From a virus: a stretch of 19,839 nucleotides of DNA. Made by a program: the position numbers and the translations under genes. How positions within the stretch are numbered: position 1 is the first letter of the stretch; the number at the start of each line of letters is the position of its first letter. Positions 3,715 to 5,840 of this stretch are shown here, piece after piece. The stretch lies in IMG/VR virus record IMGVR_UViG_3300031565_000501. The stretch is one strand, 5' to 3'. The notes beneath the pieces are model-generated. The model worked only from the letters and a program-made list of their open reading frames with translations, made no database searches and was not told the origin of the DNA.

Positions 3715-3787
3715 TGTCCGATGTCGGGCTCGAACCGACGACCTCCGGGTCTAGAATCCTGCGCTCTGCCAACTGAGCTAATCGGAC
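3715..3787 (-). tRNA. tRNA with anticodon CUA (amber-suppressor-like; isotype unknown, Gln-like anticodon arm)
   Basis: RC reads GTCCGAT-TA-GCTCAGTTGGCAGAGC-G-CAGGA-TTCTAGA-CCCGG-AGGTC-GTCGGTTCGAGCCCGAC-ATCGGAC-A. Acceptor, D and T arms are perfect; anticodon loop UUCUAGA gives anticodon CUA. The anticodon stem has two mispairs (A28.G42, A31.C39), which lowers confidence. No encoded CCA. Confidence 0.55.
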
Positions 3788-3813
3788 ATAAGGGGGAATT
3801 TCACCCCCGACTA

Positions 3814-4260
3814 TTATCTTTTATAGAAATCTCCCTTTAGAGTTTTGTATTCCTCCATTAGTTGTTCCGAAATCGACTGGGCTACTTTCCACTTCTTACG
3901 GGCTGACTGAATCTTTTCTTCTTGTTCAGAAACCTTAACCTTAGCGTGTGTAAGCGTATTAATATTTCTTAAGCCAGGCTTTTGAAGAACTCTATTAATT
4001 CTATTCCTTAAAACCTTTCTTTCACTCTTAGAATATTTACCATTTCTTATGGACTGGATCATACTCTCCTCATTAGGCATCCAGATCTCTCCAGTGATTC
4101 TCCAGTTTTCTTTTTCTATTTTCTTATTAATTACTTTAAGAGCTTCATTATATTTAGCTACTAAAGTTTTTGGGTCCGTTTCAAAAAATCTTTTATTTTC
4201 CATGATTATTTCTTTTTTAAGTTTAAAATTGGTCAATGCATGGACATAGTGTCCAAGCAT
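3814..4260 (-). CDS. hypothetical basic protein
   Basis: Track ORF, 148 aa (alternative internal start at MENKRFF). A GGGGG/CCCCC hairpin (3789-3810) lies between its stop and the tRNA. Confidence 0.5.
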   Translation of the reverse strand: MLGHYVHALTNFKLKKEIIMENKRFFETDPKTLVAKYNEALKVINKKIEKENWRITGEIWMPNEESMIQSIRNGKYSKSERKVLRNRINRVLQKPGLRNINTLTHAKVKVSEQEEKIQSARKKWKVAQSISEQLMEEYKTLKGDFYKR

Positions 4261-4391
4261 GTGTCTATGCTTAGAAATAATCTTTACGGGCCTCTGTTCT
4301 TAATCTATTTCATGATTTTGATTTTTTTTAGTTTTACAAATTTAATCTATATTAAGAATTTTCAATATACAAATTTTTTCTTAAGATAACC

Positions 4392-4769
4392 TCAATTTAC
4401 TGTTAATTGATCGTTAAATTCTTTTAATGCTAAAGGTAAATGACAGGTTAGTTTCCTGCTTACCTCAGAGGGTTGTACACAAAGCGCAGTAATCTCATTG
4501 CCAATATCGGGTTCCTTGAACACAACATGACACAAATTTGCTTTTTGAAATTTCTGGATGTACTTTTGGAGTTTTTCCTCATTCTCTACTGCGAGTATGA
4601 TAAGATAGTTGGAATTGGTATTCCAATCTTTTGCTAATTGAGGATGCTGATGTTGAAAATCAACGGCGGCGTGTGCTGACTGGACAGCTTGATAACCAGG
4701 AGATAAATCTTGCCTGGTGATTACAATGAGCTTAGAATTAATCTAGCCTTCTGTGCTTCTGCTTTTCAT
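4392..4769 (-). CDS. peptidyl-tRNA hydrolase, PTH2 family, with in-frame TAG at codon 9 (4743-4745)
   Basis: Hand translation of the minus strand gives MKSRSTEG-[TAG]-INSKLIVITRQDLSPGYQAVQSAHAAVDF...HVVFKEPDIGNEITALCVQPSEVSRKLTCHLPLALKEF. This matches the PTH2 core (human [22 protein letters not shown]...KVVVKAPDEETL...[21 protein letters not shown]). There is no ATG, GTG or TTG between the TAG and the catalytic motif, so translation must start at ATG 4769 and read through TAG. Missing from the ORF track because of the TAG. Confidence 0.75.
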
Positions 4770-4772
4770 AAT

Positions 4773-5840
4773 TTAAAATGTTTTACTTGTTAATGAAAAT
4801 TTTCCAAGAGGTAAATGATCCTCTTTGACCAAGTACAATCTAGCCTTCTCCGGAAAATATTTTTCTAATTGTTCTGCCAATTTCAGATTGGTGTGTAAAG
4901 ATGCTAATTTATCTTTTCCTAAAAGGATCTGAATTGCATCAGATCTGTGCATTTCATAAAATTCTTTTTGCATAATTATTAAGTTGTTATTATATATACT
5001 CCAAAAACTGAGCCAAGTTTTAAAAGGTGACAAATTGTCATACTATGGCTTATATTTTACTAAGATATGTTCTACATAAGATCCATTCTCTTCCTCATGC
5101 CATATCTCAAATCCTTTGTTCAACCATGGCTGAACATTTCTGTTATATGCTCTTTCTAGAGCTATATCTTGATCCCCCCAATCATTATCTTTTTCATAAT
5201 CCTCTAAATCATACCCTTTGATTTTGATATTTTTCTTCCCTAATAATTTAAAAAGAAAATAGAGTTCTTCTTGATCATTTGGACTAAGATACATTTCAAA
5301 AGCTCCGCCCATATCTTCAGCTTTATCAATAATAAAATCTTCAATGGTCTCTTCATCCACACTTCCTCTTAGATCTTGAATTCTCTTATCATAAAGTTCT
5401 TTAGACATTCCAATTCCCATTGCTTCCTTTGGCTCCTGCCCACGTTCAAAATTTAAGTTCTCATCTAATGGAGGCAAATCCATAGGATCCATTTCTTCTA
5501 TTTCTATAACATCTAATCCTTCTGGCAGATCATCATCATAAACAAATTCAAATCCTAATTCTCTAAGACCATCTTCATATTCTTCGATGGCTTCAGAAAT
5601 ATCATCCAATACAGTATCATCTGAAGTAGGGTCATCGTGATCAGCTCCTCTTCTAATATTTGCTACTTCTCTCGGTAAGTCTATAAGAAGCTCTTGAGCC
5701 TTTCTTAAATTTCTTCTTGGTCCTACATAATATAATCCCGACGGGAGCTCCAAAATAATATTCCCACCTATTTTTAAAGCATCCTTAGGATCTTGTCCAC
5801 GTTCAAAGTTTAAATCTTCATTTACCGATTTAGCTCTCAT
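4773..5840 (-). CDS. predicted read-through product: 5043..5840 continues in frame through TAG (5043-5045) into track ORF 4773..5033
   Basis: (5840-4773+1)=1068, which is 356 codons. Only 3 codons (Y-D-N) plus the TAG separate the two ORFs. The downstream ORF has no ATG (track start is TTG) and an ordinary non-junk composition (SPFKTWLSFWSIYNNNLIIMQKEFYEMHRSDAIQILLGKDKLASLHTNLKLAEQLEKYFPEKARLYLVKEDHLPLGKFSLTSKTF). Confidence 0.5.
5043..5840 (-). CDS. acidic protein with internal repeat NLNFERGQ(D/E)PK(D/E)A..IG (two copies)
   Basis: Track ORF, 265 aa, Asp/Glu-rich. Two near-identical motif copies (residues ~9-26 and ~128-145). Ends with TAG. Confidence 0.65.
   Translation of the reverse strand: MRAKSVNEDLNFERGQDPKDALKIGGNIILELPSGLYYVGPRRNLRKAQELLIDLPREVANIRRGADHDDPTSDDTVLDDISEAIEEYEDGLRELGFEFVYDDDLPEGLDVIEIEEMDPMDLPPLDENLNFERGQEPKEAMGIGMSKELYDKRIQDLRGSVDEETIEDFIIDKAEDMGGAFEMYLSPNDQEELYFLFKLLGKKNIKIKGYDLEDYEKDNDWGDQDIALERAYNRNVQPWLNKGFEIWHEEENGSYVEHILVKYKP

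Follow-up and report, generated by a model that had tools for sequence, protein, structure and literature searches.

An early in-frame amber codon in a phage PTH2-like gene and its linkage to a tRNA(CUA)

A 19,839-bp viral contig, IMG/VR record IMGVR_UViG_3300031565_000501, carries a gene for a protein of the PTH2 family of peptidyl-tRNA hydrolases that is interrupted close to its 5′ end by an in-frame TAG codon. The entire contig was analyzed, and is called the window below. The PTH2 stop codon is followed, after 605 nt, by a gene on the same strand for a tRNA with the anticodon CUA. The TAG is conserved, as TAG, in nearly all close relatives of the gene, the PTH2 gene is linked to a tRNA(CUA) in other phages, and a complete phage genome containing both uses the standard code elsewhere. 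We consider it likely that the two form a dedicated cassette, in which synthesis of PTH2 depends upon the tRNA(CUA), and that there is no general change in the genetic code. The preliminary description of this DNA had proposed that the PTH2 TAG has to be read through and that the nearby tRNA is the obvious decoder, and our analysis supports this; it overlooked the main point, which is the conserved linkage of gene and tRNA and the presence of the 5′ TAG in nearly all close relatives.

RESULTS

A PTH2 gene interrupted by an amber codon

The minus-strand open reading frame (ORF) at 4392..4769 translates as MKSRSTEG-TAG-INSKLIVITRQDLSPGYQAVQSAHAAV... (Table 1). The codons running from the TAG to the conserved block are ATT AAT TCT AAG CTC ATT GTA ATC ACC, with no ATG, GTG or TTG, and thus the earlier statement that no start precedes the catalytic block is borne out. 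The read-through frame is matched by Pfam PF01981 (PTH2) with 41.6 bits, against a cut-off of 23, over profile positions 2–112 of 115, and the domain begins four residues past the TAG. Six independent assemblies share 98.6–98.8% identity over 1.35 kb, and in none of them is the leader or the TAG altered; the sequence of the tRNA(CUA) is identical in all five sister assemblies that extend to it; a sequencing error, the possibility of which had been raised for the TAG, is therefore excluded. A megablast search of window positions 3000–9000 against the INPHARED phages gave no match.

The product is predicted by family profile and fold to be a peptidyl-tRNA hydrolase of the archaeal/eukaryotic type. 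A profile of the phage family matches the solved Pth2 structures in the PDB over their full length (E = 8e-9). The AlphaFold2 model of the PTH2 domain has a pLDDT of 92.3, and Foldseek aligns 109–118 columns of it with the archaeal and human Pth2 crystal structures 2zv3, 3erj, 1wn2, 1q7s and 1xty (TM-scores 0.72–0.76). In the model, strand 1 begins five residues past the TAG. Since the TAG and leader lie outside the modeled fold, any amino acid inserted there would probably be tolerated. The preliminary description had also considered that the TAG might generate two protein isoforms, but as it precedes the fold, termination would leave a peptide of just eight residues and this idea can be set aside. 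The active site of archaeal Pth2 contains lysine and aspartate. In the phage family the residue aligned with the lysine of the archaeal ‘GK’ is Y, Q or L, and the motifs Q..HA and E-P-D...T are invariant. Judged by these sequences, the phage PTH2 is a divergent subfamily of Pth2.

Two further elements lie between the PTH2 gene and the tRNA. The first is a copy of the leader motif, ATG AAA TAG ATT A, which is found once in the window where 0.09 matches would be expected by chance; whether it belongs to the PTH2/tRNA system is uncertain. The second is a gene whose homologs occur near tRNA(CUA) and PTH2 at about ten distinct loci, mostly between the two, including those of LR756500.1 and LR756501.1. 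Its product gave no hits against Pfam and PHROG. It is possible that this gene, too, belongs to the cassette, as a third component.

Table 1. Positions of the features discussed in the text. All coordinates refer to the 19,839-bp window.
Feature	Position	Strand	Basis or remark
PTH2 leader, ATG + 7 codons (MKSRSTEG)	4746..4769	-	ORF translation
Amber gate, in-frame TAG at codon 9; next codon ATT, next base A	4743..4745	-	
PTH2-fold domain, 116 aa, with TGA stop at 4392..4394	4392..4742	-	Pfam, structure model
Possible remnant of PTH2 5′ end or stand-alone minigene, ATG AAA TAG ATT A; reads M-K-TAG-I-K-N-R-G-P-TAA	4301..4313	-	80 nt past PTH2 stop
Gene between PTH2 and tRNA, ~130–148 aa	3814..4260	-	Homologs near tRNA(CUA) and PTH2
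Putative amber suppressor tRNA, anticodon CUA	3714..3787	-	ARAGORN; Rfam tRNA model, 56.1 bits
Major vault protein homolog (MVP), 822 aa	5921..8389	-	MVP_shoulder 96.5 bits, Vault_3 46.2 bits
GOLLD RNA (RF02032)	10131..10610	-	Rfam, 160.4 bits (gathering score 150)
tRNA	14936..15012	-	Rfam, 42.1 bits; missed by ARAGORN

The TAG is conserved in relatives of the gene

Eight relatives were first taken from IMG/VR, and the four closer ones (40–66% identity) without exception have the sequence ATG-NNN-TAG-ATT, followed by KLxVxxRxD. A profile-guided scan of IMG/VR then gave 257 relatives, and the best 80 of these comprised 61 distinct proteins of the long type, 43–68% identical to the PTH2 of the window. 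An in-frame TAG lies no more than nine codons upstream of the KL anchor in 59 of the 61, and in 56 of these 59 gated relatives there is no ATG between the TAG and the anchor. The interrupting stop codon is TAA in none of the 61, while TAA provides 85% of the long-ORF stops in the relative LR756500.1. Of 56 relatives, 47 have A on the 3′ side of the TAG, 8 have G and one has C. A purine following UAG favors amber suppression in E. coli.

The gated gene is also present in the published huge-phage genomes LR756500, LR756501, LR756502, LR756504 and LR745206, and in the cultured Acinetobacter phage vB_AbaM_ME3, where the 5′ end of PTH2 reads ATG ACT TAG ATT CAT. In such genomes it is readily missed. 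The annotation of gp266 in ME3 places its start at an internal GTG, so that part of strand 1 is lost, and the PTH2 gene was left uncalled in the sister contigs and truncated in the contig L014. Standard gene callers thus skip or truncate the gene, and the family is therefore under-reported. Database proteins that open ‘MTQINQKL’, ‘MKQINQKL’ or ‘MHQINHKL’ have TAG in their DNA, not a glutamine codon, in the three distinct sequences that we checked; the gene caller had applied code 15, in which TAG is read as sense.

At some loci a gene for an HNH endonuclease is inserted just upstream of PTH2 (L001 9230..10000, L002 8117..8900 and L030/L031), and at each of them the HNH gene is preceded by a duplicated 5′ fragment of PTH2 that includes the TAG. 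The arrangement suggests homing-endonuclease traffic at the PTH2 site. A search for this clade of homologs in 185,579 species genomes gave seven hits, all on contigs of metagenome-assembled genomes that resemble mis-binned phage. There is therefore no cellular reservoir, and the clade is essentially confined to phages.

PTH2 is linked to a tRNA(CUA)

Linkage was counted at 40 long-type loci having at least 3 kb of sequence on both sides of PTH2. A tRNA(CUA) on the same strand lies within 4 kb of PTH2 in 37 of them, and in 28 of 39 no other tRNA is closer. The two loci where PTH2 has no TAG (L089 and L093) have no tRNA(CUA) either (Fisher p = 0.012).

The association is seen also in a second clade of shorter PTH2 proteins. 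We examined 58 distinct short-type proteins with enough downstream sequence, and found a tRNA(CUA) downstream of the gene in 54, where it is the nearest tRNA in 52; the CUA anticodon accounts for only 54 of 378 tRNAs. The gap is often 4–50 nt, with a median of about 40 nt, and is 4 nt in six loci. This suggests that gene and tRNA are carried on one transcript, and if they are co-transcribed then a gate is unlikely to act as a timer. Most short-type genes begin with a plain ATG. In ten there is an in-frame TAG at a tolerant position beyond the KL anchor, mostly in a variable loop around residues 31–34, and the leader contains one in another three.

The linkage extends to cultured phages. In ME3 a tRNA annotated with ‘anticodon CTA’ is found 0.45 kb upstream of PTH2. 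In the very distant lineage of Mycobacterium phage Alice, gp150 is annotated ‘peptidyl-tRNA hydrolase’ and is followed 250 nt on by an annotated ‘tRNA-suppressor (cta)’. There are genes for transfer-messenger RNA (tmRNA) near the pair in both LR756500.1 and Alice, and that of Alice stands at the end of the tRNA array that holds the suppressor tRNA. Altogether the pair recurs in well over a hundred distinct sequences of large phages, and gene order thus points to a linkage of PTH2 and tRNA(CUA) that is conserved among phages differing greatly from one another.

The anticodon of the neighboring tRNA is not always CUA. At one locus (L191) a tRNA(UCA) takes the place of tRNA(CUA), 44 nt downstream of PTH2. 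In the Lak phages (L106 Lak-B4 and L107 Lak-A1) the tRNA lies about 0.6 kb upstream of a PTH2-like gene, and its anticodon is UUA. The partner of PTH2 appears to be a stop-codon tRNA, and not strictly an amber one.

Is the TAG a true stop codon?

Could the leader simply be a short upstream ORF? On that account ATG–NNN–TAG would be a terminated mini-ORF, PTH2 would be expressed by re-initiation or from a non-standard start such as ATT, and the link to tRNA(CUA) would have some other cause. Several observations speak for this. Among the 56 relatives, where the leader consists of ATG and 0–7 further codons, the two-codon ATG–NNN–stop is the commonest form, at 34. The codon after the TAG is ATT in 39 and GTT or GTA in 7. 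In Alice the sequence ATG TAG stands in frame directly before the annotated GTG start of gp150 (3971..3979 of L010, NC_028986; GAAGGC ATG TAG GTG ACA), and the ribosome-binding-like GAAGG is correctly spaced for the GTG. Moreover, the products of minigenes are substrates for Pth, so that a regulatory loop is plausible.

Yet the codon following the TAG is one that cannot act as a start in at least 8 of the 56 (ACT, ACA, ACG, AGC, GCT, AGA, CTT), and re-initiation at the next codon is therefore not the general mechanism. In 55 of 56 the TAG comes after an in-frame ATG, so the leader is in frame with PTH2, and this is not required of an upstream ORF. The stop is always TAG, against a background where some 85% of stops are TAA. 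Were re-initiation to bypass the internal TAG codons of the short-type genes, conserved strand 1 and the Q..H motif would be lost. Lastly, the tRNA(CUA) is missing from both of the loci that have no TAG. Taking these observations together, we regard the mini-ORF as an unlikely explanation.

A relative with a complete genome is of standard code

The complete relative LR756500.1 has an assembled length of 462,018 bp and a GC content of 24%. Its PTH2 begins MK-TAG-INNHKL. The fraction of the genome in ORFs of 100 aa or more is 0.825 with the standard code, 0.838 when TAG is taken as sense and 0.836 when TGA is taken as sense, the latter serving as a control. The 337 long ORFs end in TAA (287), TGA (32) or TAG (18). 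Only two pairs of ORFs are joined by a TAG, and in each an ATG follows immediately. PTH2 is the sole clear domain left stranded behind a TAG, and its first ATG lies 66 codons downstream. The genome encodes 26 tRNAs and one tmRNA, with exactly one tRNA(CUA), placed 0.8 kb downstream of PTH2. As the rest of the genome conforms to the standard code, we are probably dealing with a dedicated tRNA-to-gene circuit and not with a code change. The preliminary description had already favored selective read-through over wholesale recoding, and the genome-wide result for LR756500.1 upholds this choice.

It could nevertheless be that TAG is generally reassigned (code 15), as in Lak and crAss-like phages, and that the other TAG-containing genes lie beyond the 19.8-kb contig. 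Suppressor tRNAs are well known to drive the recoding of TAG in phages (bioRxiv 10.1101/2021.08.26.457843). Some relatives (LR756501, L033, L072 and L081) have a second TAG within the body of the PTH2 gene, the Lak phages, which are described as recoded, have a PTH2-like gene beside a tRNA that reads a stop codon, and the genome of the phage under study is only partly covered. Against this, TAG terminates 4 of the 23 genes in the window, and no other gene there has a TAG that is spanned by homology. One of the four is MVP, which was correctly described before as free of internal TAG. LR756500.1 gives no recoding signal. The structural module of ME3, which contains late genes, is dense in the standard code (coverage 0.942 vs 0.943), and in all sets of loci the gain in coverage from reading TAG as sense does not exceed that of the TGA control. 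Finally, the TAG of PTH2 occupies one fixed, non-structural position at the 5′ end, whereas under a code change such codons should be scattered along the gene. We conclude that general reassignment is quite improbable.

A homology test on a subset of the loci for other genes conserved across a TAG returned PTH2 and otherwise only artefacts, which were off-frame or in RNA regions. The terminator of MVP was considered as a candidate for conserved read-through, and rejected; the extensions beyond the TAG in the window and in L014 are unrelated (7 and 4 residues), and the gene in L002 ends TAA TAA.

The tRNA(CUA)

Both ARAGORN and the Rfam tRNA model call the tRNA near PTH2, confirming its earlier assignment. 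It has a seven-nucleotide anticodon loop, UUCUAGA, with U33 present. As the preliminary description had stated, there are two mispairs in the anticodon stem; these are A28xG42 and A31xC39, leaving three of five standard pairs. Position 37 is G, while it is A in 56 of the 59 related tRNA(CUA) sequences with which it was compared. Most of those are canonical. In some tRNA(CUA) genes, including those of ME3 (L111 3483..3556), L038 and L096, the loop is CCCUAAA, with C33 in place of the near-universal U. The acceptor stems are too diverse for an amino-acid identity to be assigned. A permissive Rfam scan of window positions 3300–5100 for ribozymes and other RNA elements found nothing beyond the tRNA.

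The 3′ half of the tRNA-Pro(UGG) at 15332..15405 (minus strand) is nearly the same as that of the tRNA(CUA) (GGAGGTCGTCGGTTCGAGCCCG), and G37 occurs in both. The likeness hints at shared ancestry or gene conversion.

This likeness, together with the two mispairs and G37, might be taken to mean that the tRNA(CUA) arose from another tRNA by copying and decay, and that the interrupted PTH2 is a pseudogene or an assembly error. However, the same TAG is found in six assemblies and in dozens of diverged orthologs with intact conserved domains, the predicted fold is confident and the related tRNAs are mostly canonical; the proposal is effectively refuted, and we assign it almost no weight. Nor do we give any real credence to decoding of UAG as pyrrolysine or another non-standard amino acid, for which the sole point is that ARAGORN by default labels a tRNA with a CUA anticodon ‘tRNA-Pyl’. 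The architecture of tRNA-Pyl is atypical, and the pyrrolysine system includes pylS and pylBCD. The tRNA of the window is an ordinary cloverleaf with a GG-containing D-loop, a 5-nt variable loop, a TTCGA T-loop and a five-position anticodon stem, and a scan of 12 window proteins gave no hit to PylS or PylBCD.

An ordinary terminator at 5043..5045

The preliminary description placed in-frame TAG codons in two adjacent genes. This holds for PTH2, but not for its upstream neighbor. It had been suggested that read-through of the TAG at 5043..5045 would join the gene at 5043..5840 to the ORF at 4773..5033, which was said to have no ATG, adding about 89 amino acids. In fact that ORF has an ATG at 4973 (MQKEFYEMH...) and another seven codons later, and gene callers predict a gene of 66 aa from the first of them. 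Of 18 database homologs of the putative 355-aa product, not one extends over residues 267–355, and the homolog P0060 (245 aa), which aligns to residues 1–262, ends two residues later, at the TAG. Moreover, in the closest relative (L014, with a PTH2 that is 86% identical) MVP is directly upstream of PTH2, and both the 265-aa gene and the following ORF are lacking. We therefore reject the read-through product and regard the TAG at 5043..5045 as the ordinary terminator of the 265-aa gene.

The 265-aa protein has an internal repeat, NLNFERGQ(D/E)PK(D/E)A, and its homologs vary in length, some having ankyrin repeats. A search of IMG/VR for relatives of the protein found none. A promoter-like sequence, TTGGCT-16-TATAAT, occurs at 5016..4989 (minus strand) within the supposed extension, as a match to consensus only.

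Other features of the window

The window contains 14 tRNA-like elements by ARAGORN and Rfam, all on the minus strand. A tRNA-like insert is found inside the GOLLD RNA at 10467..10537 (Rfam tRNA 43.5 bits, with no ARAGORN call), and regions homologous to the GOLLD area are present in L001 and L002. MVP is 71% identical in L002, and is found also in L014. MVP and a TROVE-domain protein are both components of vault particles. A few kb beyond the start of the window, the sister contig L112 encodes a TROVE-domain protein (31.6 bits, cut-off 23) and a cold-shock-domain protein at 8376..10067. Genes for MVP and TROVE proteins here stand beside a GOLLD RNA and tRNA arrays.

DISCUSSION

A proposed cassette of PTH2 and suppressor tRNA

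The arrangement of the PTH2 gene lends itself to a simple mechanism. In this lineage the PTH2 frame begins with a short, variable leader, and it is broken by UAG a few codons ahead of strand 1. Full-length PTH2 would then be made only when the UAG is read as sense, with the adjoining tRNA(CUA) as decoder. The output of PTH2 would track the competition of matured and charged suppressor with release factor 1, and the gate would more probably report the presence of functional suppressor relative to release factor 1 than serve as a timer.

A number of observations weigh against this mechanism, or limit its reach. That ATT follows the TAG in so many relatives leaves some room for an unusual start. 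The loci are related to one another, so that our counts are of non-independent events. With only 19.8 kb of this phage in hand, there may be late genes containing TAG elsewhere in its genome. The tRNA of the window is, from its G37 and imperfect anticodon stem, at the weak end of the 59 relatives, and it is the conserved TAG in the adjoining gene that leads us to suppose that these tRNAs are charged and decode UAG. Many of the short-type genes have no TAG at all, and gating must therefore be an addition to the linkage and not its cause. Lastly, PTH2-like genes are found with no adjacent tRNA in XacN1, RAS14 and Aeromonas CC2, and in LR745206, LR756504 and LR756502 there is no tRNA within 4 kb of PTH2.

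What might such a cassette be for? Our preferred guess, which is speculative, is that the capacity for peptidyl-tRNA recycling or ribosome rescue would be scaled to the level of stop-codon read-through. The tmRNA genes nearby in the phages fit such a role. One can be bolder, and suppose that the PTH2-like hydrolase and the stop-codon tRNA constitute a single machine acting at UAG independently of release factor 1, with the 5′ UAG as its autoregulatory sensor, much as the UGA serves in prfB. Where ribosomes were stalled or attacked at UAG, for example, the nascent chain would pass to the tRNA, to be released and recycled by the hydrolase. Stop codons in the A site are where RelE-type toxins and the loss of release factor 1 both take effect. 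The tRNA(UCA) of L191, the tRNA(UUA) of the Lak phages and the nearby tmRNA genes would be better accounted for by a function in rescue or at stop codons than by one in decoding. Even so, we think the single machine a long shot.

Comparison with known systems

The cassette we propose has parallels in bacterial and phage gene control. In the autoregulation of prfB, encoding release factor 2, an early in-frame UGA is escaped by a +1 frameshift. PTH2 is similar in having an early in-frame stop codon in the gene of a translation factor, whose synthesis would depend on the balance between termination and an alternative. It differs from prfB in that the PTH2 frame continues unchanged past the stop, and that escape would be provided by a dedicated tRNA. 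The bar minigenes of phage lambda, AUG–AUA–stop, give peptidyl-tRNA drop-off products that are substrates for Pth. The two-codon ATG–NNN–stop in most relatives resembles these, and the window has a free ATG AAA TAG at 4301..4313. Unlike bar, the mini-ORF of PTH2 is in frame with the hydrolase gene and joined to it, its stop is always TAG and the cognate suppressor is present; in the window, moreover, the leader is eight codons long.

The suppressor tRNAs and TAG recoding of phages, the PTH2 of phages and the orphan suppressor tRNAs of standard-code phages were all known before. As in the TAG-recoded phages (bioRxiv 10.1101/2021.08.26.457843), a phage tRNA(CUA) would function in a host using the standard code, and a gene containing TAG would need the suppressor. 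There, however, it is a late or lysis set that has the TAG codons, scattered through the genes; here a single gene has it, in a dispensable 5′ leader, and the genome is otherwise standard. The word ‘hydrolase’ does not occur in that preprint. The PTH2 of jumbo phages was recognized as an archaeal/eukaryotic-type peptidyl-tRNA hydrolase by Iyer et al. (Viruses 2021, PMC7824862), who proposed a role in ribosome rescue. The protein studied here is of the same family, and their survey makes no link to a suppressor tRNA or an in-frame stop (‘suppressor tRNA’ has 0 occurrences). The authors of the XacN1 genome (PMC5852040) remarked on suppressor tRNAs in phages of standard code, and did not find a target. 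The phages described here are like XacN1 and the cluster C mycobacteriophages in being standard-code phages with a tRNA(CUA), but they offer a specific target gene; in XacN1 the PTH2-like domain is not beside a tRNA. In the searchable literature we found no description of a link between PTH2 and a suppressor tRNA, or of the TAG leader.

Our analysis thus provides a conserved target gene, and a circuit that can be tested, for the orphan suppressor tRNAs of phages that use the standard code. The evolutionary path proposed to lead to recoding leaves open a stage at which a single gene is involved. A lineage might enter upon full recoding, or pause stably on the way to it, through one gene in which a stop codon is read as sense within a genome of standard code. 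The pair is present in phages that are in culture, in its gated form in the A. baumannii phage ME3 and in its linked form in the cluster C mycobacteriophages.

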